This document shows, in pieces, positions 7,776 to 26,018 of a stretch of DNA of 32,000 bases. The stretch is from Deltaproteobacteria bacterium (GTDB lineage: Bacteria > Desulfobacterota > Binatia > Bin18): contig JANMSE010000539.1 of the NCBI GenBank assembly GCA_031389045.1, forward strand, positions 1,846 through 33,845. The letters are read 5' to 3'. Numbering within the stretch: position 1 is the first letter of the stretch; every line of letters begins with the position of its first letter. Below the pieces are notes generated by a model that saw only the letters and a list, made by a program, of their open reading frames with translations, had not been told where the DNA came from and did no database searches. A program made the translations under genes and the position numbers.

Positions 7776-9236
7776 TTATTTATCCTTTGCGTCGGAGCGG
7801 TTGAACCCCGTGATCTTCAGCACGTCGTCCGTCGCGTAATTATCCACGAGCGGCATGTTGGCATCGTTAGAGTGTTGGATGGCGACGTACGCGGTGGTTC
7901 CGTCCGCGGAAAAAATGAAACCGGTGGGTTCGGCGGACGAATCCTTGACGGATAGCACTTTAACGCACCCATCTGTCTTGATGTCACGATCAAGTCCGTC
8001 CCGCAGACACGCGAAGATGTCCCCGTTCGGATGGTCTTCGATGACATACAGAATCCCAGTCTTTGGTTGAAAATCCAGATTATCGAAAGAATTGAAATCC
8101 TGGTCTCCTTCCACGAACCGGTTGACGACGACCGAGCGCTGCGTGGCACTCGCCACTAAGGGGGTCGCATCAACACCACAGATCACCTCCGCGTAGTTGG
8201 ACACGCCTTCGTTCCCGGTGTTTGTCCAGCAAAAGCGCACGCCCGTGCCGGTAAAGGTGGGGTCTCCATGCAGGTCTTCTGGGCGGTAGTAGCCAGTGGC
8301 TCCGTTGGTGCGCGCATCGGTCCGGGCATTGGCGGCGCTCACCGCTACCCACGCCCCATTGCCAATTTCACACCCTTGGCCGAACTGTTGCGTGTTATTG
8401 ACGCAGGACACTTGCAGCGCGAACACACTTCCCGCCGCCAGTGGGGATTGTCCGAGGCTGGTGACTAGTCCGGTCCCGGTGCGGGGCGTGGTGGGGACGA
8501 ACTTGAAGAGCGCTCCACCGTCTCGGTCCGCGCCCCCCGTTCCAGGACGGAGTTCGTCTCCGGCGATGACCACGCCGCTTGATAAGATGTGTAATCCTTC
8601 CCAGGCCATGGTCGGGAGCGCCGTGCGCTTGACGATGTGGGCGGAGTCCGTCACCGCGCCAGTCGCGCGGTCAGTGACGGTTTGTTCCGTCGTGGTTAGT
8701 GGATCAAGAATCTCGTAGGCCCCACCATCATCGACTTCCTCGGTGGCGAGAATCGTTCCCCACGGGGTCGTGCGAATGCCATCGCAGCCATCCATGCCAC
8801 GCAGAATGGTGGCGACTTCCCCGGTTGTCAGATTGATGCGTTGCACGGATGGATTGAGTTTCCCATTGGATAAAGTGATGCGGTCCTCTTCGACACAGGT
8901 AATGAGGTGAGTTGGCTGCGTGGCGGGAAAGAAGGCCATCATGTCCGTGTTATGCCCCGCGCTCCGGGTCAGGTAGGTGGCTTTCAGCCCTCGTGCCAAC
9001 GCCACTTGGTCCCCAGCGGTTTGCGCGGGGGTACGGTACGGCCCAACAGTGGGCGGTGCTGAATCGCCGAGGGGTTTCTGGACGCCAAAATAGCGATTGG
9101 ATTGATTCTTGAGGCGCTCTTCTACTTGGAGACCAAAGTCCTTCGCGTCATCGGCGAGACTTGCTCCTGGAAAAATACTGCTCGTCACGAGGGTGGCGAG
9201 CAGGAACGATTGGGAATAGCGGTTGAGAAACTTCAT
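7776..9236 (-). CDS. Secreted PhoX-family / DUF839 beta-propeller phosphatase-like protein
   Basis: Start moved to MKFLNRY (ATG 9236), preceded by aAGGAGGttgttca. Signal peptide ends ...FPGASLA. PhoX-like motifs: GIRTTPWGTILATEE, YYRPEDLHGDP, FDNLDFQP, AYVAIQHS. Confidence 0.75.
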   Translation of the reverse strand: MKFLNRYSQSFLLATLVTSSIFPGASLADDAKDFGLQVEERLKNQSNRYFGVQKPLGDSAPPTVGPYRTPAQTAGDQVALARGLKATYLTRSAGHNTDMMAFFPATQPTHLITCVEEDRITLSNGKLNPSVQRINLTTGEVATILRGMDGCDGIRTTPWGTILATEEVDDGGAYEILDPLTTTEQTVTDRATGAVTDSAHIVKRTALPTMAWEGLHILSSGVVIAGDELRPGTGGADRDGGALFKFVPTTPRTGTGLVTSLGQSPLAAGSVFALQVSCVNNTQQFGQGCEIGNGAWVAVSAANARTDARTNGATGYYRPEDLHGDPTFTGTGVRFCWTNTGNEGVSNYAEVICGVDATPLVASATQRSVVVNRFVEGDQDFNSFDNLDFQPKTGILYVIEDHPNGDIFACLRDGLDRDIKTDGCVKVLSVKDSSAEPTGFIFSADGTTAYVAIQHSNDANMPLVDNYATDDVLKITGFNRSDAKDK

Positions 9237-9332
9237 TGAACAACCTCCTTCACACGAGACAGACAAAGTCGCGTTCAGCTACGAGCGTAAACGCGCTGGC
9301 AAGTGGTCTATCACTTGCCGTGTTGTGTCCCG

Positions 9333-9361
9333 ATGTGGAAAAGATGAAATTCTCGTGACAA
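9333..9361 (-). promoter_or_regulatory. Pho-box-like array upstream of the PhoX-like gene
   Basis: Minus strand reads TTGTCAC-gaga-ATTTCAT-cttt-TCCACAT, three units phased at exactly 11 bp (6/7, 5/7 and 3/7 matches to CTGTCAT/C). It lies about 97 nt upstream of the ATG. Confidence 0.45.
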
Positions 9362-9383: not shown

Positions 9384-10367
9384 TTAGGCCGCTCCCTCAA
9401 GGCTGGGGACTCGTCGTGGCGTGATGGGGAGGCAAACTCGGAACGTCGAACCGCGTCCGACTTCGCTCTCAACCGTGATAGTGCCGCCCAGCAATTCGAG
9501 CAAACGCTTCACAATGTGTAACCCCAATCCCGTGCCTCCGTACCGGCGCGAGTCCGAGCCGTCGAGTTGTCGGAAGGGCTCAAAAATCACCGCCAATTTC
9601 TCCTGGGGAATTCCGATTCCGGTATCCGTCACGCTGATCTCTACTCCTTCTTGATAGCGCTGGGCCGTGACGGTGATGCTTCCGCGCTCGGTGAACTTCG
9701 CCGCGTTGCTCAGCAGATTCTTGAGCACCAATTTGAGATTCTTGGCGTCGGTGAGGACCGGTCGCAGGTCGGGGGCGCTCTGCCACACACACCTCAGGCC
9801 AGAGAGCTCCCATAACTCACGGGTTTCATGCTCCAGTTCCTCGAACAGCTTCGGCACTAAAACTTCTTTCACATTGAGACTCGTGCTGTTGGTCTCCAGG
9901 CTCCGGAGCTTCAGCAAGTCAGAGATAAATTCGAGCTGGACGGAAGCGTTTTTGTGAATTTTGCCTACCGCGTCGGCTTGTTCGGAGGTGAGAGGCCCAA
10001 AGGTCCCGGCACTCAACATTTCACCATAGCCCAGGATAATGCTGAGCGGGGTCCGCAGCTCGTGTGAGATGGTCGCCACGAACTCAGATTTGGCCCGGTT
10101 TGCGACCTCAGCCGCTTCCTTGGAGACGAGTGTTGCCTCCAACTGCGTCGCCATCTGGTTAAATTGCATGGCCAGCTCGGTGAACTCGTCCCGCCCTGTG
10201 ATCGCGAGACGATGCCGGAGGTCACCTTGGCCAATGGTGAAGACCCCCTGCATCAAATCTTTCAAGGGGGTGTGGATACCGCGGATAAGGAGGAAACTCG
10301 CGCCCACCCCACTGAGGAGGAAAGCGAGGAGCAAGACGGCGAGTCGCCACAGAGCGCGCTCTACCAC
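9384..10367 (-). CDS. Sensor histidine kinase, C-terminal part (TM2-HAMP-HisKA-HATPase_c)
   Basis: H-box SHELRTPL, N-box LLSNAAKFT, G-boxes DTGIGI and GGTGLGL. The GTG-started ORF overlaps the upstream sensor ORF by 146 nt in another frame. Confidence 0.8.
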   Translation of the reverse strand: MVERALWRLAVLLLAFLLSGVGASFLLIRGIHTPLKDLMQGVFTIGQGDLRHRLAITGRDEFTELAMQFNQMATQLEATLVSKEAAEVANRAKSEFVATISHELRTPLSIILGYGEMLSAGTFGPLTSEQADAVGKIHKNASVQLEFISDLLKLRSLETNSTSLNVKEVLVPKLFEELEHETRELWELSGLRCVWQSAPDLRPVLTDAKNLKLVLKNLLSNAAKFTERGSITVTAQRYQEGVEISVTDTGIGIPQEKLAVIFEPFRQLDGSDSRRYGGTGLGLHIVKRLLELLGGTITVESEVGRGSTFRVCLPITPRRVPSLEGAA

Positions 10368-11238
10368 GTGCGTCGCCTCTTGCTCCGCCGCTTGCAGCTC
10401 GTGTTGGGGTCAACGCTTGAATATGGTCATCCAGGAGGTCGTCGAGCTGGCCGCGGAGGACGAGGAACTGCTGGATTCCGGCTTGCAACTGGTCGTCCGC
10501 CGCGAGCATCTCCTGAATCCGAGACAGGATTTGTGGGAAGAGGGTTTCCAGCTCGCCAACCCAGCGCCGTTCTTCCTCAGTCAGACGGAGTCGGCTCAAG
10601 ACGGCGAGGTGCGTTTGAAAGTCAGTGGCATTGTCAAAAATCCGCGTGTGGTAGTCTCGCTGGTGCGTCCGCAGGTAGTGACCAAGCCACGTGCCAACCT
10701 CGGCGCTATCCGCCTCCAGAGACACGGACTCTTCAATTTTTTGCTGTCCGTCTGGTCCTATCCGGTCGATGTGGGCCTGGAAGCGATCATCAATGATATC
10801 GTCGAGCGTATCAAAGTTGATGGCCACGGTCGCGAAGAGTTTTTCCTGCTGATCCTTACGGTCCATCAGCGTCTGCCCAAGCGTGCGAAACTCTCGGTAG
10901 AGCGCCTCGACCTGCTCTCCGAGGGTTTTGCTCCGCGCGGTCTGGCTCAAGCCGTTGTACTGGGCGTGGAAGTGGGCAAAGTCCGCCGTATCCTTGGCCA
11001 CACGGTCCCGATATTTGGGGTCCCCGGTATCCAGATACTTTAAGACTCCCAGGCCGGTACCAATGACGTTGATCTCCATTTCATACGCAGCGGCGCTGGT
11101 TGGTTGCCTCACATTGGTGACCTCATATAGCGCCTGCTCGACTGTCCTGAGCGCCTGATAGATCACCGCGATCGTCCCGAGGCCGATGAGCAAAATCAGC
11201 GTGACCCCTAGAAAAATCCTCTTCGTGATTGTCATCAC
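10222..11238 (-). CDS. Sensor histidine kinase, N-terminal part (TM1 plus a helical periplasmic CHASE3/4HB-like sensor); the frame is lost near 10400-10415
   Basis: N-terminal TM (IFLGVTLILLIGLGTIAVIY) followed by about 270 aa of helical sensor. The last roughly 60 codons are Arg/Pro-rich nonsense. The kinase frame upstream of 10367 reads PQHELQAAEQEATHVVERALW, continuous in sense with ...LDDHIQAL. Confidence 0.7.
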   Translation of the reverse strand: MMTITKRIFLGVTLILLIGLGTIAVIYQALRTVEQALYEVTNVRQPTSAAAYEMEINVIGTGLGVLKYLDTGDPKYRDRVAKDTADFAHFHAQYNGLSQTARSKTLGEQVEALYREFRTLGQTLMDRKDQQEKLFATVAINFDTLDDIIDDRFQAHIDRIGPDGQQKIEESVSLEADSAEVGTWLGHYLRTHQRDYHTRIFDNATDFQTHLAVLSRLRLTEEERRWVGELETLFPQILSRIQEMLAADDQLQAGIQQFLVLRGQLDDLLDDHIQALTPTRAASGGARGDARGRARSVATRRLAPRFPPQWGGREFPPYPRYPHPLERFDAGGLHHWPR

Positions 11239-11421
11239 ATACTCCTAATTGCCCACTATAAAATATGTTTCCTCCTAAAACCACTGAGATTATACGGAAA
11301 TTTTTATTTTTCCATAAGGGTTATTGTGTATTTTTCTGACTGATCGAGCACTCCAAATGAAGATGTCTAAATTCACATCGCCAAGAGCGGTCTTGCTTGA
11401 GCGGTAGCGTCCGGTCCCGCC

Positions 11422-11637
11422 TTATGCGCCGAATCGCCAGTGGGTCAGGGCTTGGAAAAATCCCCAGAGCATCCCCCCAACCATCGCCAATGTCGTCACC
11501 GCAAGGATTAGCTCCGCGAGGTTCTCTTGCGTCACGTTCCGGTTCCACCACCGCCGACGTAGAAAAGAATGTGGCTGGGTAAACGGTGGGAGTATCTCCC
11601 GCGCGGTATCCGTTCTCTGTCCAATGATTGCTTCCAT
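11422..11637 (-). CDS. Small hypothetical membrane protein (71 aa, C-terminal TM)
   Basis: GGAGGA lies 6 nt upstream of the ATG (catGGAGGAtacagcATG). One hydrophobic helix: LAELILAVTTLAMVGGMLWGFF. Confidence 0.45.
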   Translation of the reverse strand: MEAIIGQRTDTAREILPPFTQPHSFLRRRWWNRNVTQENLAELILAVTTLAMVGGMLWGFFQALTHWRFGA

Positions 11638-11871
11638 GCTGTATCCTCCATGACAAAAGGTGAATCGTTCTCATTCGGCTATCCTGCCGCGGACCATTCC
11701 TCGGCAAGTTCTTCAGTATATTTGACGGTCATTCTCCTGCTCGCTGTTGACGAGCAGGTGACGTGAGAAAGAACATTTGGTGAAGGACGAACGCCTCGAC
11801 GGAGGGTCTTCGATGAAATAGGGATTGCCAGTCCCGGGTTGCAAATCCAGATTGTCAAACGAGAGGAAGGA

Positions 11872-11932
11872 GAGGTTGCTGAACAATGAGCAGCAACCTC
11901 TCCGGGGAAGAGGCCGCCGGGCAAGCGGCCTC
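11872..11932. repeat. Two adjacent perfect GC-rich hairpins in an ORF-poor region
   Basis: gaggttgctg-N9-cagcaacctc (10-bp stem, 11872..11900) and gaggccgc-N7-gcggcctc (8-bp stem, 11910..11932). Confidence 0.7.
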
Positions 11933-12069
11933 GGGGGAGGGATGAGAGGCTTGTAGTGTAAGCGGGCTCCGTTACGCGAGGATGACAGACTCGTGAAAGT
12001 TTGGTGGAAAAAATGTCACGGTCGCCGCGTCGTGGAGCAGTGACATGAAGTTCGTGAGTTTCAAGGTCC

Positions 12070-12220
12070 CTCTCCCGGCTGAGCAATGGCATGAAGTTAA
12101 GGAAGTTTTTGTCGCAGGAGAAATCACCCCCACGCCTCCCCCTGCCGGGGGTTTCAACCCCCGGTTTGCTGCGAGCAGCGCCTTTCGGCTTAACTTCATG
12201 CCATTGCCCGGCTGGGAGAG
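12070..12220. repeat. Long imperfect inverted repeat (about 32-nt arms with a 19-bp perfect core) enclosing an inner hairpin
   Basis: gcaatggcatgaagttaag (12083..12101) pairs with cttaacttcatgccattgc (12189..12207). Flanks ctctcccggctg / ccggctgggagag are partly complementary. The inner hairpin is ccggggg-tttcaa-cccccgg (12145..12164). The element lies just 3' of the PEMT-like gene (stop at 12254). Confidence 0.75.
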
Positions 12221-12253
12221 GACTAGGGTGGGGGGGATCACGTGACCTTTCCC

Positions 12254-12793
12254 TTATTGCTCGAAATAGGCACCAGCAAGGTAATAGATCGTTTGCAGAG
12301 CCGGCAGCAAATACCAGTCGTCATGCGGAAAGCGCATGGCGAGGAAAAAGCCCCAGATGGAGAATAACGTGCCCACGTACTGGGGGTGGTTGAGCAGCGA
12401 AAAGGGGAACTCGCGACACCACGGGACCCGATACCCAAACTTATTGCCATAAAAGACTCCGACCTTGCCCAACCGATAGAACACGCTGAAGTTGAGAAAC
12501 TGTCCGGCGATGATCGCCGCCGTTCCCACCGTGAGGACAACGAAGTCTCGGCTCATCAACGACGGGAGGAGTCCATACCCGTGGAGATAGCACCACCCGA
12601 AAAACACCGCGAGTTGAATCCCCTTGAAGCAAAAAAAGAGTTTCTGTAGGACAGAAACCGGGTCCCCCAAAGCCATCACTCTCGGACGGGCGCAAAAGGC
12701 CCGAAAGGACTCGGGCGCACGCCACGCCCAGACGTAACACACGCGTTCGAGGCTCAGTAAGACAGCGGCAACCACAAAGGCCCAGAGACTCAT
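12254..12793 (-). CDS. PEMT-family (phospholipid / isoprenylcysteine-type) membrane methyltransferase
   Basis: Start placed at MSLWAF (ATG 12793), which forms an ATGA overlap with the upstream gene's stop. 179 aa with about 4 TM segments. C-terminal motif: LLNHPQYVGTLFSIWGFFL. Confidence 0.8.
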   Translation of the reverse strand: MSLWAFVVAAVLLSLERVCYVWAWRAPESFRAFCARPRVMALGDPVSVLQKLFFCFKGIQLAVFFGWCYLHGYGLLPSLMSRDFVVLTVGTAAIIAGQFLNFSVFYRLGKVGVFYGNKFGYRVPWCREFPFSLLNHPQYVGTLFSIWGFFLAMRFPHDDWYLLPALQTIYYLAGAYFEQ

Positions 12794-15120
12794 AGCGCTG
12801 CTCCTTTCCGCGCCTGCAACGCCTGCACGAGTCGAGAAGGGCTGGTGTAGTACGCCGCGATGTCGGTGAACGGATCGGTGGCCAGTTTCACGAACCAAAT
12901 CATCGCACTGCGAAAATCGTGCTCCCACACGAGATAGGAGACGTGTCCCAGGACAACCGCTCCCGTCAACAGAAGCCATTGCCACGCGACCGTGGGGGTG
13001 ACCGCGGCGAGCGTCTCCCACGTCGCCGACCCAGCACTTACTAGATGCAGGACAGGAATCAGGAGATACGCGGCGACAATGATCGTTTTCTTACGGGTGT
13101 TCAGCCCCAGGAGCAATTTCTCCTTGTCATGGCATGGTGGCTCGAGGATGGCATGACCAAGCTGCCGCACAAACAGCGCGGCCAACCCTAGCGACATCGC
13201 CAGAGTGAGGTTCGAGAAAATCAAAAAATAACAATAAATAAACACGCTGGAACTGAGCAAGTGGAAAAATTGGTTAATCAGGTTGCTATGCGAAGCGACG
13301 TGGTCATCGTGCTTGCGCTCCATGATCTCCGTATAAAAACTCTTCAGAGGCTGGGGCACCCGCAACGCGGGAACCCGCACTGCGGGAACCCGTACCAGAC
13401 TCCCGAGCATTTCTCGAATGAGATGTGAACGCATGATCTTCTCCCTCCCTGGGTGTTGTTCTTCGCTTAACCACCACGCATCGCTCTGCATCGTTCGCGC
13501 CGCGCGTAGCAGCTTGTCCTGTAACTCTTGATAATCGGCCTCCGTGAAATCCAAACTACTCAGACAGCGACCCGTGCCGACCCAACTCAGCGTGACCCCC
13601 TCCGCGCGCAGGTAGTATTGCAGGAGCCAGTTGTAGCGACTCGGTTCCTTGAAGAGCACGGTCCAGACCGTGCCGAAATGCACGATCCGCAGTGGCAACG
13701 AGGAGGCGGCGAGTTGCTGATTGGTCGCGAGCACCCATTGCGCGCACCGTTGTTTGGCTGTGTCGTACACCTGCGCCGTGTCCGGCTGCGTGACCCAACG
13801 CAAGAACTCATTCATGGCGCCCATGACCAGCGGATGCGCGGAGAACGTGCCAATCACATACGCGATGCGCATCGGGTGCTCGCTATCAAACCGCTTCATC
13901 AGCTCCCGCTTGCCGCACACCACGCCGATGGGCATCCCCCCGGCCACCGTTTTGCCGTAGACGACCACATCCGCCTGCACGCCAAAATACGCTTGCGCGC
14001 CGCCGGGGGCGAGGCGAAAACCGGTGTACACTTCGTCGAAGATCAGCGGGATGTCACAGGCCGTGCACACTGCGCGCAGTGTCCGCAACCATTCAGCGTA
14101 GGAGGTGGAGGAATCCTCGGTTTTGCGCACGCCACTCATGAGTAACACGGTATCACTCGGAGGTGGTGAATTAGGGTGGAACGATTGCACCGGATTGATG
14201 AGCACGGCGGCGATCTCTTTGGCCCGCCACCGAATAAGGTCGAGCGAGGCCGGATGGACGTCCTTGAGCGTGAGACAATCGTTCAGCTCGCGCTCACTGC
14301 CCAGTCCGGCCTGCACGCCATCCCACCAGCCATGATACGCCCCGGAAAAGCAGACGATCAATTTGCGGCGGGTATTGAACCGCGCCATCCGCACGGCGGC
14401 CATCACCGCTTCGGTGCCGCTCATGTGGAACGACACTTCATCCATACGCGAGATGGATTTGAGCAGGGTAATGTTTTCCGCCACCACCGGGTGGAGTGGC
14501 CCCAATACCGGCCCCAAGTCCTTTACCTGCTCCCACCCCTTTTGCATCCACTCCTTGTAGCGGTCGAACCCCGCGACATTGAGGCCATACGAGCCGCTCA
14601 CATCTAAGGTCCAATGCCCATCGAGATCACGTAATTTCGGACCTGCCGACGCGGTCACGACCGAGCAGAGGCTGAATTTTTCACGCATCAGGCGCATAAA
14701 TGGAAACGGTACCCGATTGGCATCAGTGAAACGCAAATCCGAGAAGCTCTCGCGAATCTCATTGCCCCAGGCGATCGAACGCGCATAGTGCGTCTGGAAA
14801 AAACTGGCCAATCGGTCGAGGGCCTGTTTACGCAGCGCCACCCAGCGCTCCCCGCCGCCGTCCGCCCGGACAAACTCCTCGTCCGAATAGGCATACGACT
14901 TCACCCATGTGGACAACCGCCGGGAGACCGTCGGTGCCAGTGCCAGCGCCCGCAGGGTCATCACCGCCGTGACCAGCTTGCGCCCCACGACAACGACGAC
15001 GCACAGCACGCACAGCAGCCCCAGCGTAAGCCAGGCATTCCCCCATTCTACGGTGGAAATCCCTGTCGCGTGCGGGAGCCATTCCGCACCCGTGTGTCGC
15101 AGCCACTCAGTCAGTTTCAT
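12790..15120 (-). CDS. Fusion protein: N-terminal TM anchor, class-III (glutamate-1-semialdehyde aminomutase-like) PLP aminotransferase, and a C-terminal Mpo1/DUF962-like membrane domain
   Basis: 776 aa. Aminotransferase motifs: HMSGTEAVMAAVRMAR, FSGAYHGWWDG, FDEVYTGFRLAPGGAQAYFGV, YGKTVAGGMPIG (Lys). C-terminal SHSNLINQFFH and LGHAILEP match the HxNxxNxxxH and GHxxxE signatures of DUF962/Mpo1. Confidence 0.85.
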   Translation of the reverse strand: MKLTEWLRHTGAEWLPHATGISTVEWGNAWLTLGLLCVLCVVVVVGRKLVTAVMTLRALALAPTVSRRLSTWVKSYAYSDEEFVRADGGGERWVALRKQALDRLASFFQTHYARSIAWGNEIRESFSDLRFTDANRVPFPFMRLMREKFSLCSVVTASAGPKLRDLDGHWTLDVSGSYGLNVAGFDRYKEWMQKGWEQVKDLGPVLGPLHPVVAENITLLKSISRMDEVSFHMSGTEAVMAAVRMARFNTRRKLIVCFSGAYHGWWDGVQAGLGSERELNDCLTLKDVHPASLDLIRWRAKEIAAVLINPVQSFHPNSPPPSDTVLLMSGVRKTEDSSTSYAEWLRTLRAVCTACDIPLIFDEVYTGFRLAPGGAQAYFGVQADVVVYGKTVAGGMPIGVVCGKRELMKRFDSEHPMRIAYVIGTFSAHPLVMGAMNEFLRWVTQPDTAQVYDTAKQRCAQWVLATNQQLAASSLPLRIVHFGTVWTVLFKEPSRYNWLLQYYLRAEGVTLSWVGTGRCLSSLDFTEADYQELQDKLLRAARTMQSDAWWLSEEQHPGREKIMRSHLIREMLGSLVRVPAVRVPALRVPQPLKSFYTEIMERKHDDHVASHSNLINQFFHLLSSSVFIYCYFLIFSNLTLAMSLGLAALFVRQLGHAILEPPCHDKEKLLLGLNTRKKTIIVAAYLLIPVLHLVSAGSATWETLAAVTPTVAWQWLLLTGAVVLGHVSYLVWEHDFRSAMIWFVKLATDPFTDIAAYYTSPSRLVQALQARKGAAL

Positions 15121-15122
15121 CT

Positions 15123-16448
15123 CTACATCCTCCTTTCCACGGTTCCGTGGTCAAACCTCGATGGGGTAGCAAAAAGTTGGGGCGCGGGATGATGTGAACC
15201 ACACGCTTCCGTCAGCAGCGTGGCGAACTGTTCCACGATACTCGACCAGTCAAAAGCGACGATGTGCTCACGTGCCTGTCGTCGTATCCGGAGGAGCGAC
15301 CACGGCTCACGCACGAGCGTGGCGGCGGAGTCGACGAAGGCGGTCGCGTCTCCATACGGGGCCAGCAGCCCAGTTTCGCCATGACGAATGTGCGCATGGG
15401 CCGCGGCGTAGTCATAGGCGAGCACCACCAACCCGCTGGCCATCGCTTCCAGCGTGACATTGCCAAAGGTTTCCGTTTCACTCGGAAAAAGAAAAATATC
15501 CGCCGACGCATAATGGGTCGCGAGCGGCTCACCGGTCTGGAGCCCAGCGAAGATGAGATCGGGATGGGTGTTCTGAAGGCTGGCGCGCAGGGGGCCATCC
15601 CCGACGATGACACACGTGACCGCACCCCCGCGCCGCCGCATGGCGTGGTAGGCCGTGATCGCAAGGGGGACATTTTTCTCGGGCGCGAGCCGCCCCACGG
15701 ACAACACCACCAGGTCGTGCTCCGTCACGCCCCACTGCGCCCGGAGTTCCGCGCACCGACGTGCCGGAGTGAACCGGTGGCTGTCCACGCCGCGGCCGAG
15801 AACCGAGACATTGCGGACGCCAAGGGTATGGAGGCGGTCGCGCTGATCGCTACTCGGGACCAACGTCCCGTGCGTGCGGTTATGAAAGCCGCGCAGGTAG
15901 CGGAAAACCAGAGGTTGCAACCAGCCCACGCGATAGTACGTGGAGTAGCTGTGGAAGTTTGTATGAAAACCGCTGACGACCGGAATGCCAAGCCGCCGTG
16001 CACTGGACAGCGCGGACCATCCCAGCGGTCCTTCCGTCGCCACATACACCACATCGGGTCGGTGTCGGGCCCACGCACGACGCAACGCGCGTCCCGCCGG
16101 CAGGCCAAACTGCATGCCCCCAGACCCAGGCAACGGGAGGCCATGAACCAGGGTCACCGCTGAGTCGCGGTGCCCGCCGGCACCATCCGCCAGCCGCTGC
16201 CGTGGCCGCACCACGGACACCGTGTGCCCGCGCGTACGGAGTCCTTTCACCAGATGGGATAAGGTGAGCGCGACGCCGTTAATCTCCGGGGGATAGGTTT
16301 CACTGACGATGCTGATATGTCGCGGCTGGAACGCGCGCTGGGGGGACTCGATCCGTACCGAAGCCGGAGGCTGGTTCAACGCAATCGGCAAGCGAAGAGC
16401 ATCGTGAACGAAAGAAGAATTTTGCACTTGTGAGTATTCCTCCAACAC
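15123..16448 (-). CDS. GT4-family (glycosyltransferase group 1) enzyme, SqdX/Agt-like lipid glycosyltransferase candidate
   Basis: Start moved to GTG 16448, preceded by agaGGAGGggcggct. N-terminus ISIVSETYPPEINGVALT. C-terminal FLFPSETETFGNVTLEAMASGL (EX7E region). Its stop abuts the ATG of the next gene with no intervening bases. Confidence 0.85.
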   Translation of the reverse strand: MLEEYSQVQNSSFVHDALRLPIALNQPPASVRIESPQRAFQPRHISIVSETYPPEINGVALTLSHLVKGLRTRGHTVSVVRPRQRLADGAGGHRDSAVTLVHGLPLPGSGGMQFGLPAGRALRRAWARHRPDVVYVATEGPLGWSALSSARRLGIPVVSGFHTNFHSYSTYYRVGWLQPLVFRYLRGFHNRTHGTLVPSSDQRDRLHTLGVRNVSVLGRGVDSHRFTPARRCAELRAQWGVTEHDLVVLSVGRLAPEKNVPLAITAYHAMRRRGGAVTCVIVGDGPLRASLQNTHPDLIFAGLQTGEPLATHYASADIFLFPSETETFGNVTLEAMASGLVVLAYDYAAAHAHIRHGETGLLAPYGDATAFVDSAATLVREPWSLLRIRRQAREHIVAFDWSSIVEQFATLLTEACGSHHPAPQLFATPSRFDHGTVERRM

Positions 16449-16493
16449 AGCCGCCCCTCCTCTACATGATTTCGCATAGCGTAGTCTCACATT

Positions 16494-16544
16494 GTTACAT
16501 GCTGTTGTTCCTCGCTTGAAATTTGCGTGACGCGCGTGTGACCG
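16494..16544 (-). promoter_or_regulatory. Pho-box-like array oriented toward the GT4 operon
   Basis: Minus strand reads CGGTCAC-acgc-GCGTCAC-gcaa-ATTTCAA-gcga-GGAACAA-cagc-ATGTAAC. Five units with 11-bp phasing, scoring 6/7, 5/7, 4/7, 2/7 and 5/7. Confidence 0.45.
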
Positions 16545-16662: not shown

Positions 16663-17007
16663 ATGGAGAAGGATGAGCTCGCGGTGGCCGATCACTTACG
16701 CAATCAACTTGGCGTATTCTACTGGACGATGCGGCGCGGTGGTGACCTGGAAATCGCCGTGCGACAATTGCAAACGGAGGTGTGTTGGACCGAGCGAGAA
16801 ACCCTCTCTTGGTGTCGCTGCACCCCCCCCACGCTGTTCGCGCGCTGGAGTCAGACGCAGCTCACGTCATTATTGGGAGAAGCGAAGCAGGTGCTCAGCC
16901 GCGCGGAACAGTGTCTATCCGTGAGGGAGCCGCTTGAGAGCATCCAGCTCGGGGAGAGCGAGGCTCACGGCGACAACCCGGAAGTCGTTAGTGGACTGTG
17001 GGCATGA
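16663..17007 (+). CDS. Hypothetical protein (114 aa)
   Basis: SD gtGGAGGAGGacgcATG. Its stop overlaps the next start as ATGA (17004..17007), implying translational coupling. No family recognised. Confidence 0.5.
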   Translation: MEKDELAVADHLRNQLGVFYWTMRRGGDLEIAVRQLQTEVCWTERETLSWCRCTPPTLFARWSQTQLTSLLGEAKQVLSRAEQCLSVREPLESIQLGESEAHGDNPEVVSGLWA

Positions 17008-17675
17008 CACGGGTCCCGGTGGTGGTCGCACTGGTCGTTGTGCTCCAGGTGGAAACTGGGCGGGCGGAGCACCCGCCCGACAAGATCATTTCCTTGGAGA
17101 CGTTCGAGGCCGCCCCGCTGAAGGGTTTCCCGCCACACTGGGAAAGTCGCGGCGATAAAGCCAACGCGCGAGCCATGTACTGGATCGAGCAAGAAGAGGG
17201 GAACAAGTTTCTCCATGCGCGCGCGAGCAAGCATGATATCCAAATCGGGCTTGTTCGCGAGATCGACCCCCAGCGGTTTCCCCGACTGCGGTGGCGGTGG
17301 CGAGCCAAACAACTCCCACTCGGCGGCGATGAACGGGCCGCGGCGACCTACCACTCGGCCGCCGGGGTCTATATCATTTTTGATAGTCGCATCGTTCCCC
17401 GCATCCTCAAGTATGTGTGGAGCGCGGCCCTCCCTGTCGGATCGCGGTTGCAGAACCCATTCTATTGGCGCGGGCGCACCATCGTGCTTCGCAGTGGCCC
17501 CTCCGCCCTCGGCCAATGGCAGCAAGAGACGGTCAATTTCCATCAGGATTACAAGGACTGCTTCGCCAGCGAGCCTGGGACCGTGCTTGGTATCGCCCTG
17601 CTCACCAGCGCCGACGTGTCCAAGAGTGAGGCTGAAGCGGACTATGATGACTTCGCGCTGCACCCAGCGGAGTAA
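17004..17675 (+). CDS. DUF3047-family secreted protein
   Basis: Start at MTRVP (ATG 17004). Signal-like VVVALVVVLQVETGRA. Motifs: FPRLRWRWRAKQLPLGGDER, AAGVYIIFD, GIALLTSAD. Confidence 0.7.
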   Translation: MTRVPVVVALVVVLQVETGRAEHPPDKIISLETFEAAPLKGFPPHWESRGDKANARAMYWIEQEEGNKFLHARASKHDIQIGLVREIDPQRFPRLRWRWRAKQLPLGGDERAAATYHSAAGVYIIFDSRIVPRILKYVWSAALPVGSRLQNPFYWRGRTIVLRSGPSALGQWQQETVNFHQDYKDCFASEPGTVLGIALLTSADVSKSEAEADYDDFALHPAE

Positions 17676-17947
17676 TGAAACGTGGGTGTCATTGTCAGCC
17701 AATGGATTCGCGTCATCATGGCCTCAGGCGCGGAGATTATGATGTCGGGGGTAGGCGGTATGCTCCTCATCATCATCACTGTCGTCGTCGTCGTGATCAT
17801 TATTGTCGGCGCCGTGAGGTGGTTCAATCCCCGATAGCGCGCGCCGAAGTCCCGTAACAGAAAGTTCAAGACCGTACGATGTCGCTGTAACATCGCGTCG
17901 CGAAAATGTACGCATCACGAAGAGTGGTAGGTGTGGAGGTTCGCGGT

Positions 17948-18703
17948 ATGGGAATGGATGTGTTACGACAACCGGAATTCATTTTTCCTTCACGGCTCCT
18001 GACTGGGATAACATCTGGTGACGAGGTCGATACCCTCATCGTCTCGGATGTCCATTTGGGCACCGATCTCAGTCGTCCCGATGCCCTGCTGGCGATGCTC
18101 AAAAGCCATGTGTTTCGCCGTCTCATTTTATTGGGCGACATTTTCGACACCCTGGATTTTCGTCGCCTTCCGCGCGCGCACTGGCATCTGCTCACGTATA
18201 TCCGCGCGCTCTGTCAGCCTGAGCAGCGAGTCGAAGTGGTCTGGGTGGAAGGCAATCACGATCATCTGCTGTCGATGGTCACTCGCAGTTTTCTCGGCAT
18301 CCCGATCCACAAGCGGTATGAATGGACGTTCCGTGGACAGCGCTTCCTGGCCATGCACGGACATCAATTCGACACCTTCATCCATCGGCATCCGGTCATC
18401 ACCGATGTCGCCTGTTGGGTGTATGAAACCCTCCAGCGCCACGAGGGGAGTGACCACCGGTACAGTCGCGCGCTCAAGCACAAGAGTAAGGGGTGGCTGC
18501 GCATGTCCGAGGCCGTGGCGACGCGGGCGGCGTCCTACGCCGTGCGCCGCGAGGTGGACACGATCTTCTGTGGCCACACCCATCGCTCCTTATCGGCCAC
18601 GTTTGGCGCGGTGACGTATCACAACGCGGGCTGTTGGACCGATACGCCCGCGTCGTTCATTACCATTGGCACCCGTGGCGTCGAGGTGCATCAATATCAC
18701 TGA
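17948..18703 (+). CDS. Calcineurin-like metallophosphoesterase of the LpxH / PlcP-like type
   Basis: Start moved to ATG 17948 (GGAGG 8 nt upstream). Motifs: LIVSDVHLG, LLGDIFD, GNHD, HGHQFD, GHTH. Confidence 0.8.
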   Translation: MGMDVLRQPEFIFPSRLLTGITSGDEVDTLIVSDVHLGTDLSRPDALLAMLKSHVFRRLILLGDIFDTLDFRRLPRAHWHLLTYIRALCQPEQRVEVVWVEGNHDHLLSMVTRSFLGIPIHKRYEWTFRGQRFLAMHGHQFDTFIHRHPVITDVACWVYETLQRHEGSDHRYSRALKHKSKGWLRMSEAVATRAASYAVRREVDTIFCGHTHRSLSATFGAVTYHNAGCWTDTPASFITIGTRGVEVHQYH

Positions 18704-19031
18704 GGCGGGACCCCGACCGCGAAAAGGACTCACGATGTCACTGCCCTTCCTCTCGACTCTTCACGATCGCTTGTTCGATACGATCCATCGACGCTAACTC
18801 ATCTATAATACCTGTACTGTCCTCTCTCACCGCGCGGTTCCATCCATGTGTCACTTAGGTCCACCGCGCCTACGGGGGGCTGTGGCGCTACTGCCTCTTC
18901 CTGGGTAAAAAATGACCTCTCTGGTCCGACATGGCAGGGTGGAGTAGCTTCGCGGCGGCGATATTCACTCGCGTACTTAGCGAAGCACTCCGCGGACCGA
19001 CAGAAAACGAGAAAGCAAAAGGAGGATTTCC

Positions 19032-19154
19032 GTGACAGATCAAGAGAGGAGAAGAAGGAATAGACATGCGAAGACGATAGTTTATGGTGCTCCTCGTCCT
19101 TGCGGGGAACATAAGAGAACGGTATCGAACAGTGTAAAGTCGATCTTGCTGTGA
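19032..19154 (+). CDS. Candidate upstream small ORF (40 aa, Arg-rich), possibly coupled to the EEP gene
   Basis: aaaAGGAGGAtttccGTG gives MTDQERRRRNRHAKTIVYGAPRPCGEHKRTVSNSVKSILL*. The stop at 19152..19154 is 3 nt before the EEP ATG, which has no SD of its own. The ORF is below the track's size cut-off. Confidence 0.3.
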   Translation: MTDQERRRRNRHAKTIVYGAPRPCGEHKRTVSNSVKSILL

Positions 19155-19157
19155 TGC

Positions 19158-19895
19158 ATGATGAGAGTCGCTACCTACAACCTGTTGAAGGGCGGAACAA
19201 AACGAATCCATTGGCTCAAGATGATCGCAGAGCACCAAGTCGATTTGCTCCTGGCTCAGGAATCCGGCCCGCGGGATCACTACCTCCCGCCTCTCACGTA
19301 TCCCGACCTGCGAGGGCAGGCGGTGTGGGACATGGCCACGCCGAACCGCTGGGGAAGCGCCATCTTCGCAAAAACCGGCGCTGTGAAACAACTCCAAATC
19401 CCGAGATTCAACGGCTGGGTCGTGGGAGCGGAAATCACGGGTTTCGCGTGGCGACGTAAGGTCAACCGTCCGCTGACGGTCTTCAGCGTGCACGTGCCGT
19501 ACGGGCAGGGGGGCTATGTGAAACAAATGCACGCCTTGCTCGACGAGATCGCGCGCCTTGCCGTCGGGAAAGACGTCATCATCGGCGGGGACTTTAATCT
19601 GTCGATCAGCAATGTGCCCAGCGCGGATAAACCGATCAACAAGCGCAATGCGGCGATACAAGCACGACTCATGGAAGAATTCGGACTGATGAACTGTTGG
19701 CGGGAAGCGAACCCAGGGCGACAACCGGCGCAAACGCTCCGGTGGACGGGAAATCGCACGATCCCCTATCACTGCGATGGCATTTTCGCGCCTGCGCATT
19801 GGAGGACTCGACTGCGGTCGTGCTCCGTATTGTCAGGCGCGGAATGGGATCACCTGAGTGATCACAATCCCGTCATTGTGACATTTGCAGACTGA
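19158..19895 (+). CDS. Endonuclease/exonuclease/phosphatase (EEP) family hydrolase
   Basis: 245 aa. Motifs: RVATYNLL, LLLAQE, SVHVP, IIGGDFN, WDHLSDHNPVIV. Confidence 0.85.
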   Translation: MMRVATYNLLKGGTKRIHWLKMIAEHQVDLLLAQESGPRDHYLPPLTYPDLRGQAVWDMATPNRWGSAIFAKTGAVKQLQIPRFNGWVVGAEITGFAWRRKVNRPLTVFSVHVPYGQGGYVKQMHALLDEIARLAVGKDVIIGGDFNLSISNVPSADKPINKRNAAIQARLMEEFGLMNCWREANPGRQPAQTLRWTGNRTIPYHCDGIFAPAHWRTRLRSCSVLSGAEWDHLSDHNPVIVTFAD

Positions 19896-19896
19896 C

Positions 19897-20051
19897 GGTG
19901 GTTTGATCTAGCGGTGCCACTCTTTGCGGTAGTCCACTGCTAAGTAGACCCGCGGAAATAGTTATGCTCGCAATCTTCAAAAATCATGAGGGAAGTCCTA
20001 AAGCTGAGCATAAATCTTTTTGCGGTCCTACTTAGCCATCATTAGACCACC
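19897..20051. repeat. AT-richer element made of three nested inverted repeats (long imperfect hairpin)
   Basis: ggtggt..tcta (19897..19910) pairs with tagaccacc (20043..20051). gctaagtagacccgc (19939..19953) pairs with gcggtcctacttagc (20022..20036) at 13/15. ttatgctc (19962..19969) pairs with gagcataa (20006..20013) at 8/8. It starts 2 nt after the EEP stop. Confidence 0.65.
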
Positions 20052-20282
20052 ATCTGGCGCCCACGACGCAAGGTCAGTGGCATATCAGTGAACTCAACAT
20101 CACTGTACACCTCACGAAAGATGCTCTCGAAGCGTAACGCATCGGCAGCACCGCGCGAGAGATCTGAAAACTTGCCGTCACGTCTCGTCGCACCGAGATA
20201 TGGGAAGGCTTCGTGCCGCGGCCCAGGCTGAAAAGTGACTCACAACTGGCCGCTTGAGTGCGCCAAGGTCGTGTGGACTGAT

Positions 20283-20735
20283 TTAGACCGTGACCTTGAG
20301 CCGCCGGCCAACCCGCGTCACGCGCCGGGTTCTTTTCGCTGGAGAGCGAGCCGGGGTCGTGCGCCATTGCTGGAGCCCACGACGGATATAGTCGGGGTCG
20401 AGATTCAGAGCCTCACAAATGGAGACGAAAGAAAAAGGCCATTCCGGCTCGTCACGAAAAAACCATTCCTCGGTTTCTTGACCCAAACGACGGGCACGAG
20501 GGGTCGTGGCGGTGACATGCGTCTTGAAGCAGGTCACCGCATCGGTGAGGATCGCGCTGAGCAAGGCGTTCACCCCATGCTTCAGCGCGGACAGTGGCGA
20601 GAAAAACTGTTCTGGCAGAATCACATCCTGGGGAACGTCCGTGCTCCGCTCCAGTCGCATTTCGAGAGGGAGCGCTGAGGAACGTGAAGAAGGCGGCAAG
20701 GCGTCTTGTCGTGTGAGTTGCGGGTGTCGCAGCAT
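20283..20735 (-). CDS. Hypothetical protein (150 aa) with a basic C-terminus, possibly HTH-containing
   Basis: SGGAAGGA-type SD 8 nt upstream of the ATG. The segment WPFSFVSICEALNLDPDYIRRGL looks like a helix-turn-helix. A complete Pho-type promoter lies directly upstream. Confidence 0.5.
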   Translation of the reverse strand: MLRHPQLTRQDALPPSSRSSALPLEMRLERSTDVPQDVILPEQFFSPLSALKHGVNALLSAILTDAVTCFKTHVTATTPRARRLGQETEEWFFRDEPEWPFSFVSICEALNLDPDYIRRGLQQWRTTPARSPAKRTRRVTRVGRRLKVTV

Positions 20736-20769
20736 GGAAAAATCCTTCCGATGAGCTTCCAGGCGAAGA

Positions 20770-20825
20770 ATCCTACGTGGCGGAGGTTACACCACCATGA
20801 CAGTGCGGAGACATCTTTATGACAG
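20770..20825 (-). promoter_or_regulatory. Best Pho-box array in the window, with a -10 element
   Basis: Minus strand reads CTGTCAT-aaag-ATGTCTC-cgca-CTGTCAT-ggtg-GTGTAAC (7/7, 5/7, 7/7, 5/7; exact 11-bp phasing), then 10 bp to TAGGAT (20775..20770). It is about 62 nt upstream of the 20735 ATG and in the shared intergenic region with the GDPD gene. Confidence 0.7.
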
Positions 20826-20945
20826 GGATTGGGCTGCTCTTTTCGCTAACCTGCTGTGATCTCTTATTCACGGAACAGCCATTCTCTTGAAACATTCGTT
20901 CCGTATGGTCACGAGCAAAATTGTCCGTGACAGGAGGAAAGTGCT

Positions 20946-22187
20946 ATGCGTCAAGGGTTAGCGATAGTCGGGCTCGCCACGGTTCTCTCAACGTTCCCCA
21001 ACCAGTCGATGATCGCGTCCGCCGACAACGACAAGAATGGGTCGAAAAAACCGCTCAATGTCCAAGTCGGTCCACGCCCCTATTACCTGGTCGAAGATAT
21101 GGACCCAGGGCCGCTCAAGACCGCGCTTCAGCGATGTAGCGACAAGCCGCTCAAGAAAACCAACTTTTCCATTGGTCACCGCGGCGCACCGCTCCAGTTC
21201 CCCGAACATACCAAGGAGTCCTACGAAGCCGCCGCCCGCATGGGAGCTGGGATCGTGGAATGCGACGTGACGTTCACCAAGGACAAGGAGCTTGTCTGCC
21301 GTCACTCGCAGTGTGACCTCCACACCACGACCAATATCCTCGCGACTCCCTTGGCGGCCAAGTGCTCCGTCCCCTTCACCCCGGCTGATCCCGTGGCTGG
21401 GACGCCGGCCCAAGCGCAGTGCTGCACGAGTGACATCACGCTTGATGAGTTCAAGACGTTGCGTGGCAAGATGGATGCGTTTAATCCCGATGGCACCACG
21501 GTCGCGGAATACCTGGACGGGACTCCGAGCTGGCGCACCGACCTCTACTCCTACGATGGCACGCTCTTGAGCCATGCGGAGAGCATTGAGTTATTCAAGA
21601 CGCTGGATGTGGGGATGACCCCGGAACTCAAGGCGCCCAACGTACCGATGCCATTCCAAGGGACCTACACACAAGCACAGTATGCCCAGCAGATGATCGA
21701 CGAATACAAGGCGGCTGGCGTGTCTCCAAGGAAGGTGTGGCCACAATCATTCAGCCTGAATGACGTACTGTATTGGATTCAGCGCGAGCCCGCCTTTGGC
21801 AAGCAGGCGGTCTACCTCGACGATGCCAATGTGCCGAGCGAACTCCCGTCGGCAACTGATTTGCGGTCGTATGCCGCGCAAGGCGTGAAGATTGTCGCGC
21901 CGCCGATGTGGGCATTGATCGCTTTGCAGGGCAATCGGATTGTGCCCTCCCAGTATGCCGCGAATGCCCGCGCGGCCCGTTTGGGTCTCATCACGTGGAC
22001 CCTCGAGCGGTCCGGGCTCCTCACGGATGGTGGGGGCTTTTACTATCAGACGGTGAGTCCCGTTATCCATAAGCCAGGAGACATGCTGAACGTGCTTCAC
22101 GTCCTCGCCAAGGACGTCGGGATTCTCGGCATCTTCTCTGACTGGCCCGGGACGGTGACGTATTACGCGAACTGTATGGGACGGTAG
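20946..22187 (+). CDS. Secreted glycerophosphodiester phosphodiesterase (GDPD family)
   Basis: 413 aa with SD acAGGAGGaaagtgctATG and a signal peptide. Motifs: [16 protein letters not shown] and [14 protein letters not shown]. Confidence 0.9.
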
Positions 22188-22281
22188 TCGTCTTCCGTGC
22201 GCACGGATAGTGGGGAACAGGGCCATGCGTGACCCTGTTCCCCACTATGGGCGGACGCTTCTCGCACAGGGGAAGTATCCG

Positions 22282-24177: not shown

Positions 24178-24252
24178 ATCCCGACCTCCTTGTAGGAATG
24201 TCACACGGGTGATGCGGTCCTCGTGCGCGTGCGAGGACATATCACTACCTGT

Positions 24253-24292
24253 GTGAACGGATGACGAGGTCCGTATGAAATGTTCGTGACGG
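24253..24292 (-). promoter_or_regulatory. Weaker Pho-box-like array upstream of the 5'-nucleotidase gene
   Basis: Minus strand reads CCGTCAC-gaac-ATTTCAT-acgg-ACCTCGT-catc-CGTTCAC (6/7, 5/7, 3/7, 5/7), phased at 11 bp. The proximal unit is 76 nt from the ATG. Confidence 0.35.
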
Positions 24293-24334
24293 GAGAGACG
24301 TGGTTCTCCCGTCAGAGATCGGAAGGGGCCGAAG

Positions 24335-24360
24335 CCGCCCGACGATTGATCGTCGGGCGG
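24335..24360 (-). terminator. Perfect 11-bp GC-rich hairpin downstream of the phytase-like gene
   Basis: ccgcccgacga-ttga-tcgtcgggcgg, 54 nt past the stop at 24414. A second 9-bp hairpin sits at 24288..24311. There is no strong U-tract. Confidence 0.5.
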
Positions 24361-24413
24361 AGGGAGGGAGGACACGGCAAGTCCCGATGTGTCCGCCTGT
24401 CGCGTGATGGGAT

Positions 24414-25943: not shown

Positions 25944-26018
25944 GGAGTGACTCCTTTCTGAAGAGGTCGCCTGAGATTTGTGGTGACGACCGCACAGATA
26001 TTTCCTGGGCCGCTTGTT

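Follow-up and report, generated by a model that had tools for sequence, protein, structure and literature searches.

When phosphate is scarce, a major adaptation is to exchange phospholipids for phosphorus-free lipids, and the known bacterial surrogates are glycolipids, the betaine lipid diacylglyceryltrimethylhomoserine (DGTS) and amino-acid lipids. Which lipid, then, would be made by a three-gene operon found on the minus strand (12254-16448) of a 32,000-nt stretch of Deltaproteobacteria bacterium (Binatia; assembly GCA_031389045.1, contig JANMSE010000539.1; the whole stretch is called the window here), whose genes encode a family 4 glycosyltransferase (GT4), an aminotransferase fused to an Mpo1-like domain, and a PEMT-family methyltransferase? 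An earlier note on this DNA had proposed that a glycolipid is built, given an amine through a carbonyl intermediate and N-methylated, and was not aware of any described pathway with this enzyme set. None was found here in the literature searched (open-access papers and preprints only, where absence is not proof), and we know of no earlier link between a class-III aminotransferase/Mpo1-like oxygenase pair and lipid head-group chemistry. The product of the operon is probably a membrane lipid not described before, containing nitrogen but no phosphorus and found in many soil bacteria. It is read here as an extension of PlcP-Agt lipid renovation, in which the Agt glycolipid would be aminated and then methylated (probability about 0.55).

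Operon structure and gene calls

Three minus-strand open reading frames (ORFs) were confirmed at 12254-16448, with products of 441, 776 and 179 amino acids (aa), and the same products were returned when an independent gene caller was applied to an identical contig in public data (L089). The first gene (15123..16448), for an Agt2-type GT4 predicted from Pfam and homology to act on diacylglycerol (DAG), was read from a GTG at 16448 preceded by GGAGG; alternative starts lie at 16490 and 16379. Its stop codon (TAG, 15125-15123) is separated by a 2-nt spacer from the ATG (15120-15118) of the second gene (12790..15120), which has AGGAGG upstream and encodes the aminotransferase/Mpo1-like fusion with its N-terminal membrane anchor; the two genes had previously been described as joined with no gap, which the spacer corrects. 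The overlap reported at 12790..12793 was seen again, the fusion stop and the start of the third gene (12254..12793) sharing an ATGA at 12793-12790. This last gene encodes an integral-membrane, S-adenosylmethionine (SAM)-dependent methyltransferase of the PEMT family, assigned by Pfam. The three genes are real and translationally coupled. An Rfam scan of the window gave zero matches, and a promoter and terminator scan of the window gave a number of sites not above that in shuffled sequence.

Identity of the glycosyltransferase

Both halves of a GT-B enzyme were present in the first product (Pfam Glyco_transf_4, 107.7 bits; Glycos_transf_1, 98.8 bits). A tblastn search against plasmid records recovered a Pseudomonas aeruginosa gene 52.6% identical to the window GT4, which was recognised as PA0842/Agt2 by its context (cerN, plcH, plcR, the glycosyltransferase, then ackA and pta). 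By BLASTP, the window protein was aligned to PA0842/Agt2 over residues 41-439, the entire catalytic region, at 51% identity (E 3e-130). PA0842 is induced four-fold by depletion of inorganic phosphate (Pi) and has a Pho box, and Agt2 makes glucuronic acid-diacylglycerol (GADG) from UDP-glucuronic acid and DAG, in E. coli and as the purified enzyme (PMC8528852). The best NCBIfam matches, likewise lipid glycosyltransferases, were both below cutoff (GpgS, 158.8 bits against a cutoff of 480; alpha-monoglucosyl-DAG synthase, 89.6 bits). By homology the GT4 is an Agt2-type DAG glycosyltransferase, with Agt2 as its documented closest characterised relative, and the Agt half of the previous assignment (SqdX/Agt type) was borne out by the identity to a proven GADG synthase. 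No transmembrane helix was predicted in the GT4 by hydropathy; the statement that all three products are membrane-associated is corrected to the extent that only the fusion and the PEMT protein are integral to the membrane.

Pho boxes and the phosphate-scavenging island

A Pho-box-like direct repeat, GTCACACGCGCGTCAC (16527..16542, minus strand), lies 86 bp upstream of the GTG at 16448. It has the form GTCAC-N6-GTCAC with an 11-bp period, is followed by a third half-site (TTCAA), and matches the PhoB consensus CTGTCATNNNNCTGTCAT (PMC8528852). One exact match was found, against 0.05 expected by chance per window; with one mismatch or fewer, 22 sites were found across the window against 8.3 ± 3.0 expected. 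Further Pho-box-like sites were located 78 bp upstream of PhoX (9344-9359), beside GDPD (20786-20823, three overlapping sites), and at 24275-24290, 26030-26056 and 27861-27887. The motif GTCAY-N6-GTCAY was scanned in 85 sequences (1.28 Mb), and a zone was defined as the 300 bp or less upstream of cluster genes. This zone makes up 7.9% of the sequence and held 25 of the 44 sites (binomial 9e-17), distributed over 22 loci from several phyla, and each of 23 permuted-core controls gave 0 to 3 zone sites. The Pho-box loci are related and not fully independent, though their spacers differ.

Genes for phosphate acquisition were found on both sides of the operon (7776-9359 and 17906-26056): PhoX, a PlcP-like protein, an EEP hydrolase, GDPD, a 5'-nucleotidase and a phytase-like protein. 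The PlcP-like metallophosphoesterase (17906..18703, plus strand; Metallophos, 43.8 bits) is divergent from the operon, 1.4 kb away, and is a candidate phospholipase C supplying DAG; it is 30% identical over its full length to P. aeruginosa PlcP PA3219 (E 2e-22), which itself shares 46-47% identity with other characterised PlcPs (PMC8528852). Related loci carry PhoX, PhoU and a phosphate-selective porin. The window is a phosphate-scavenging island, and from the conserved PhoB-type repeat the operon is predicted to belong to the Pho regulon. The repeats upstream of the operon and the nearby scavenging enzymes with a PlcP-like phosphoesterase, both named in the earlier note, were thus recovered, and a Pho-regulated role in membrane lipids is very likely.

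The same surroundings would also suit a catabolic role, in which the aminotransferase deaminates amino-lipid head groups (phosphatidylethanolamine, PE; phosphatidylserine, PS; ornithine lipid) as phospholipids are dismantled under phosphate stress. Transaminases are reversible, and the operon is surrounded by hydrolases that break down compounds containing phosphorus. Such a role would leave the conserved methyltransferase, the GT4 and a flippase-like gene of alphaproteobacterial loci (see below) unexplained, and phosphorus is freed by PlcP or GDPD without deamination; it is regarded as very improbable.

The aminotransferase part of the fusion

The fusion begins with a hydrophobic anchor (14950..15051, minus strand; aa 24-57; Kyte-Doolittle peak 2.43), which is also present in unfused aminotransferases of ~560-585 aa. 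The anchor is followed by a class-III aminotransferase domain (13465..14751, minus strand; aa ~124-552) dependent on pyridoxal 5'-phosphate (PLP) and matched by Pfam Aminotran_3 at 112.8 bits (cutoff 30.5). The PLP lysine, K390 (codon 13951-13953), lies in the motif YGKT-AGG-P and was invariant in 44 homologues and in 8 diverse ones. The best solved relative was the AMT domain of the mycosubtilin synthase MycA (6kfm; 177.7 bits, residues 126-528), against 117 bits for the best structure of a glutamate-1-semialdehyde aminomutase; class-III C-6' aminotransferases were detectable relatives (7lld, 78 bits; 6cbk, 38 bits). A full-length AlphaFold2 (AF2) model of the fusion had a pLDDT of 55 and a pTM of 0.45, too low for domain packing to be read.

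The fusion was annotated automatically by the Joint Genome Institute (JGI) as 'glutamate-1-semialdehyde 2,1-aminomutase'. Identity with this enzyme, HemL, was rejected: the equivalog TIGR00713 scored 166.9 bits against a cutoff of 527.3, the protein has 776 aa with transmembrane segments where HemL is soluble and of ~430 aa, and MycA AMT is the closer relative. By domain and structure matches the fusion is a membrane-anchored class-III PLP aminotransferase and not HemL.

That annotation, together with the frequency of GT4 enzymes in polysaccharide synthesis and the occurrence of related AMT domains in polyketide synthase/nonribosomal peptide synthetase (PKS/NRPS) megasynthases, could be taken to place the operon outside membrane lipids altogether, in haem synthesis, in decoration of exopolysaccharide or lipopolysaccharide, or in secondary metabolism. 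Besides the HemL score, the membrane anchor and the fusion to a membrane domain argue against this, as do the 51% identity of the GT4 to a proven DAG glycosyltransferase and the phosphate setting (Pho boxes, Pi-scavenging neighbours); the Pfam-scanned ORFs of the window and the conserved neighbours included neither PKS/NRPS genes nor genes for a polysaccharide polymerase or for polysaccharide export. A non-lipid role is held to be highly improbable.

Other relatives of the aminotransferase (P0123, 1189 aa; P0124, 872 aa; P0126; P0127) lack the Mpo1-like C-terminus and have long N-terminal extensions instead, and in one of these four a weak GT2 match (22.4 bits) was found, which suggests that this aminotransferase family has other fusion partners.

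The Mpo1-like domain and its pairing with the aminotransferase

The C-terminal part of the fusion (12793..13365, minus strand; aa 586-776, ~190 aa) is an all-helical membrane domain of Mpo1-like/DUF962 type. Several C-terminal helices were seen by hydropathy, and an AF2 model of the domain alone (pLDDT 85.7) had nine; comparison of this model with folds in the PDB gave no similar solved fold. The earlier note had called the domain 'dioxygenase-like DUF962/Mpo1'. The family assignment is supported by a histidine signature and by a distant full-length homologue (P0140) that passed the Pfam Mpo1-like cutoff (PF06127; 38.6 bits, cutoff 24) and was alone in doing so; the window domain scored 16.6 bits, below that cutoff, another homologue (P0125) scored 22.2 bits, and weak matches were found in 19 of 49 close homologues. 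Residues H607, H611, H620, H656, E660, D665, E667, D749 and D753 are invariant and are shared with stand-alone partner proteins at ~30% identity; N616 and Q617 are likewise invariant in fused and stand-alone forms. By transitive homology the domain probably belongs to the Mpo1-like superfamily as a divergent protein, and a metal site in it is probable; Mpo1 of yeast is a 2-hydroxy fatty acid dioxygenase that depends on Fe2+ (PMC10398889).

Homologues of the fusion numbered more than 120 cluster representatives (69-87% identity, ~766 aa), and when each GTDB species was represented by one genome, a scan recovered at least 591 relatives. The full-length fusion was found in Binatia-like 'delta' metagenome-assembled genomes (MAGs), Rokubacteria/Methylomirabilota, Nitrospira (including the cultured N. 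moscoviensis NSP M-1, which also has PEMT and an Agt1-type GT4), Vicinamibacterales and some Gammaproteobacteria. A shorter aminotransferase without the C-terminal domain was found in Alpha-, Beta-, Gamma- and Zetaproteobacteria, Acidobacteriaceae, Verrucomicrobiota and others, its carriers including Methylobacterium aquaticum DSM 16371, Roseomonas, Muricoccus and Pelomonas; here the gene directly beside that of the aminotransferase encodes a ~190-210-aa homologue of the domain that it lacks. Gene neighbourhoods were counted by targeted tblastn in 60 loci with enough flank (±8 kb), in place of all-versus-all ORF clustering, which was noisy (conserved alternative-frame ORFs in GC-rich DNA). The Mpo1-like partner accompanied the aminotransferase in 59 of the 60 loci, fused in 21 and as a separate neighbouring gene in 38. 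Because they are fused in some genomes and adjacent in others, the two form a Rosetta-stone pair.

A 105-aa 'Mpo1-like protein' gene was also observed in P. aeruginosa (NZ_CP137508.1; L087:5656-5973), two genes from plcP-agt1. The histidine signature of the window domain aligns with this protein, and direct comparison of the two gave a motif-level match only (BLAST E 9; hhalign probability 1%). Under Pi stress P. aeruginosa makes a glycolipid of unassigned identity (m/z 786.7), which lies 2 Da below GADG (788.6) and gives the same DAG fragment (PMC8528852, Jones et al.). A keto-uronate head group would fit this mass; it is an unproven lead only.

The methyltransferase and its replacement

The third gene product was matched by Pfam PEMT (PF04191) at 52 bits (cutoff 25) and has hydrophobic segments by hydropathy; an NCBIfam equivalog scan of the protein gave no match. 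PEMT was seen in the clade with the fused form only, directly downstream of the fusion in 13 of the 21 fused-clade loci with enough flank. In 20 mostly alphaproteobacterial loci of the split clade, a class-I SAM enzyme takes its place, and the best curated match of that enzyme was the phospholipid N-methyltransferase PmtA (136.5 bits, cutoff 390; next match 71). Judged from these matches, PEMT-type and PmtA-like proteins are unrelated folds in the same slot, and both are known bacterial solutions for N-methylation of a lipid amine. Because the unrelated PmtA-like fold replaces PEMT in Alphaproteobacteria, methylation is taken to belong to the pathway, and N-methylation of a lipid amine by the third gene product is supported indirectly, by analogy with these enzymes.

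A variant of the same pathway would have the methyl group on oxygen, for example as a glucuronate methyl ester, and would yield a neutral or cationic amino-glycolipid and not a quaternary ammonium. The PEMT superfamily includes carboxyl O-methyltransferases, GADG as the likely GT4 product has a free carboxylate, and the lack of an equivalog match leaves room for this. The wide margin by which PmtA leads in the alphaproteobacterial replacement (136.5 against 71 bits) and the fact that PEMT is the top Pfam match of the window protein point the other way, and O-methylation appears improbable.

Association with Agt-type glycosyltransferases

An Agt-type GT4 was found within 6 kb in 53 of the 60 loci, of Agt2-like type in 22 and of a second type in 31; the latter shares ~50% identity with the glycosyltransferase encoded beside plcP in P. 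aeruginosa, which by position is Agt1/PA3218. A lipid N-methyltransferase-type gene was present in 36 loci and a PlcP-like gene near the cluster in 19, and a PlcP homologue is also present in locus L001. In Alphaproteobacteria the GT4, methyltransferase and Mpo1-like genes form a single same-strand run. No head-group donor enzyme other than the GT4 was conserved among the cluster neighbours. The co-occurrence of the fusion with GT4 and methyltransferase genes, proposed earlier as a check, was thus observed across phyla.

Three further arrangements were observed. Thirteen alphaproteobacterial loci (L036, L038, L039, L041, L049, L050, L052-L054, L056, L061, L071 and L083) carry a flippase-like gene of the UPF0104/LPG_synthase_TM family (MprF/GpgF-type) after the Agt1-type GT4, at about +4.9 kb from the aminotransferase; the match scored 27 bits across the full profile, below the cutoff of 33.4. 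This family accompanies the amino-glycolipid operons GpgSDF and HexSDF (PMC12713373). In six loci from Pseudomonadota MAGs (L017, L019, L021, L023, L024 and L031), btaA (DUF3419, 373 bits) and a btaB-like methyltransferase gene lie 1-2 kb upstream of the fusion; a PlcP-like gene is usual in these loci and PEMT is lacking. On a Sphingomonas parapaucimobilis plasmid (NZ_CP155753.1; L084:7985-12077), the aminotransferase gene is divergent from a phosphatidylserine decarboxylase gene and is followed by Mpo1-like and PmtA-like genes, with a Pho-box-like site at 8844-8859 and no nearby GT4.

These arrangements bear on whether the GT4 and the other two genes serve one product. The GT4 might make GADG or monoglucosyldiacylglycerol (MGDG) only, with the aminotransferase/Mpo1-like protein and the methyltransferase building or modifying a different phosphorus-free or amino lipid in a separate, co-regulated pathway. 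Candidates would include a lipid with a beta-amino fatty acyl chain derived from a beta-keto acyl precursor, an aminopropanediol lipid from oxidised DAG, or head groups of the PE, ornithine or homoserine type in modified form. That the aminotransferase has a beta-ketoacyl-aminating AMT domain as its best solved relative would suit this account, as would the seven loci without a nearby GT4, among them the Sphingomonas plasmid with its three genes beside phosphatidylserine decarboxylase; the clustering of btaA and btaB with the fusion indicates that Pho lipid genes do aggregate. However, association with a GT4 (53 of 60) is far above that with PlcP (19 of 60), two different Agt types have both been recruited, the genes are tightly coupled in the window (2-nt spacer, ATGA) and arranged in a same-strand run with the methyltransferase and Mpo1-like genes in Alphaproteobacteria, and the GT4 is the only conserved enzyme in the cluster that could donate a head group. 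Separate pathways are possible but doubtful.

Proposed pathway

Under the preferred reading, in which the Agt glycolipid is the substrate of the later enzymes, the PlcP-like phosphoesterase would free DAG from phospholipids upon Pi starvation (step 1), and the Agt2-type GT4 would glycosylate it, most likely to glucuronosyl- (or glucosyl-) diacylglycerol (step 2). The His-rich, probably Fe-dependent Mpo1-like domain would turn a hydroxyl-bearing carbon of the head group into a carbonyl (step 3), and the aminotransferase of the fusion would transaminate this carbonyl via PLP on Lys390 at the cytoplasmic face of the membrane, giving an amino-glycolipid (step 4). The PEMT-family enzyme would N-methylate the new amine with SAM, as PE is converted to phosphatidylcholine (PC) (step 5). 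The product would be a phosphorus-free, nitrogen-containing surrogate of PE and PC, cationic or zwitterionic. It may be amino-deoxy-glucuronosyl-DAG, which would be zwitterionic and become a betaine once trimethylated; 6-amino-6-deoxy-hexosyl-DAG; or aminopentosyl-DAG, formed via an ArnA/ArnB-like oxidative decarboxylation of GADG.

Steps 1 and 2 are predicted from homology to characterised enzymes. Steps 3 to 5 are inferred from the domain families, the fusion, the gene order and the replacement of the methyltransferase, and so are the lipid on which the aminotransferase acts, an oxidative role for the Mpo1-like domain, the preference for N- over O-methylation and the identity of the product. 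In the pathway put forward in the earlier note, the glycolipid, its phosphate regulation and the association of the genes have gained support from GT4 homology, Pho boxes, co-occurrence and the methyltransferase replacement, and the amination and methylation chemistry stays an inference.

Several points weigh against this pathway. No product has been observed. The window domain is below the Pfam threshold for Mpo1-like proteins, the methyltransferase is missing in 24 of the 60 loci, and the seven loci without a nearby GT4, including the Sphingomonas plasmid, keep the aminotransferase, Mpo1-like and methyltransferase genes. PEMT-superfamily enzymes can O-methylate carboxylates, and MycA AMT, the nearest solved relative, aminates beta-ketoacyl thioesters and not sugars. 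Co-location could reflect co-regulation within a Pho lipid island, given that BtaA and BtaB, a separate pathway, adjoin the fusion in six loci. Yeast Mpo1, the sole characterised member, shortens free 2-hydroxy fatty acids by decarboxylation (PMC10398889), and formation of an aminatable carbonyl on a sugar is not known for it. Set against these points, extension of PlcP-Agt renovation is still preferred, and the O-methylation, non-lipid and catabolic readings are less likely.

A more specific version is put forward tentatively, at a little short of even odds: that the operon makes an unrecognised and widespread lipid class, consisting of a DAG glycolipid in which the sugar receives an amine within the membrane and after that one, two or three methyl groups. 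Its glucuronate-based form would be a true 'betaine glycolipid' mimicking PE and PC, and its range would take in uncultured soil lineages (Binatia, Rokubacteria, Nitrospira, Acidobacteriota) and Alpha- and Betaproteobacteria.

Comparison with known systems

The closest known system is the PlcP-Agt pathway (P. aeruginosa PA3219/PA3218/PA0842; SAR11; Agrobacterium Agt; PMC4796936), with which the window shares a PlcP-like enzyme, an Agt2-type GT4 (51%) and a Pho box, and whose DAG-based phosphorus-free glycolipid is the expected intermediate here. The known pathway ends at MGDG or GADG, whereas here and in hundreds of genomes an aminotransferase, an Mpo1-like protein and a methyltransferase are added. 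Synthesis of DGTS by BtaA and BtaB likewise gives a phosphorus-free, N-methylated, Pho-regulated surrogate, and nitrogen is introduced first and methylated with SAM second, as is proposed here; in the operon, however, nitrogen would come from transamination of a carbonyl and not from transfer of an aminocarboxypropyl group from SAM, and methylation would be carried out by a PEMT-type or PmtA-like enzyme and not by BtaB. No match to BtaA (DUF3419) was found within 8 kb of the window aminotransferase.

The GpgSDF (glucosaminyl-phosphatidylglycerol) and HexSDF (aminohexosyl glycolipid) systems also combine a GT4 lipid glycosyltransferase with a second enzyme that exposes a free amine, and have a UPF0104 flippase-like gene, as do alphaproteobacterial versions of the cluster. 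Their amine results from deacetylation of N-acetylglucosamine and they have no methyltransferase, whereas the window has an aminotransferase and no deacetylase, and its GT4 (158.8 bits for GpgS, cutoff 480) is closer to Agt2. In the conversion of PE to PC by PEMT or PmtA, the same two bacterial lipid N-methylation folds are used as occur in the cluster; the context here implies a non-phospholipid amine as substrate, and no equivalog cutoff was reached (PmtA, 136.5 against 390).

Conversion of a sugar hydroxyl to a carbonyl followed by PLP-dependent amination is known from ArnA/ArnB (synthesis of 4-amino-4-deoxy-L-arabinose, Ara4N) and from aminoglycosides, where a C-6' dehydrogenase works with class-III C-6' aminotransferases such as NeoN and GenB. 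Those enzymes are soluble, act on nucleotide sugars or pseudo-oligosaccharides and are served by NAD or FAD oxidoreductases, whereas here an Mpo1-like domain in the membrane is the proposed oxidant, for what would be a lipid-linked substrate. With yeast Mpo1 (PF06127/DUF962) the window domain shares the signature H-x-N-x(4)-N/Q-x(3)-H, the character of a helical membrane protein and, in the proposal, a lipid-anchored hydroxy-acid substrate; it differs in being very divergent, with ~190 aa, extra helices and an aminotransferase to which it is fused or paired. MycA AMT, like the fusion in the proposed pathway, aminates a carbonyl on a lipid-like substrate, but it is embedded in a PKS/NRPS and acts on a beta-ketoacyl chain bound to acyl carrier protein, whereas the fusion is free-standing in the membrane and has neither a carrier protein nor a synthase near it.

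Other features of the window

The ~1 kb downstream of the PEMT gene (11239-12253) had no Pfam or Rfam match; two terminator-like hairpins and Pho-box-like sites at 11747-11762 and 11971-11997 were seen, and it may be a small unannotated gene or a regulatory region. Upstream of the operon and divergent from the GT4 gene (16663-17675, plus strand), a 114-aa ORF that matched no family runs a few bases into the start of a DUF3047 gene; the two were also called as genes on the identical contig L089, and DUF3047 was found near the cluster in just one further locus (L014). At 9384-11238 (minus strand) a sensor histidine kinase looks split into two ORFs, a 338-aa N-terminal ORF (10222-11238, no Pfam domain) overlapping a HAMP-HisKA-HATPase ORF (9384-10367) by 146 nt in a different frame, which may reflect a frameshift or a fault in the assembly, or the two may be distinct genes. 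Unrelated genes encode a Peptidase_C14 caspase-domain protein (2864-3709, minus strand), a LOG-family protein (4294-4860, plus strand), an extradiol dioxygenase (6805-7683, plus strand) and an HMA_2 metal-binding protein (30176-30721, plus strand).

Significance

Pho-regulated synthesis of phosphorus-free lipids via PlcP-Agt is already known; its proposed extension by an aminotransferase, an Mpo1-like protein and a methyltransferase would be new and, should the product be confirmed, could define a new lipid class. The carriers comprise dominant uncultured soil phyla and also cultured strains (N. moscoviensis NSP M-1, M. aquaticum DSM 16371, Roseomonas sp. KE2513, Muricoccus radiodurans, Pelomonas sp. 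V22, which has no methyltransferase, and Sphingomonas parapaucimobilis YK209, which has no adjacent GT4), so that the proposal is directly testable. If true, a transaminase-based, N-methylated amino-glycolipid would be a new class of lipid with new enzymology, a first function would be given to bacterial Mpo1-like/DUF962 proteins, and a large family annotated automatically as HemL would be corrected. Such lipids could explain unidentified nitrogen-containing glycolipids of environmental lipidomes and, as amine-bearing lipids change surface charge, would bear on resistance to cationic peptides and on phage attachment.

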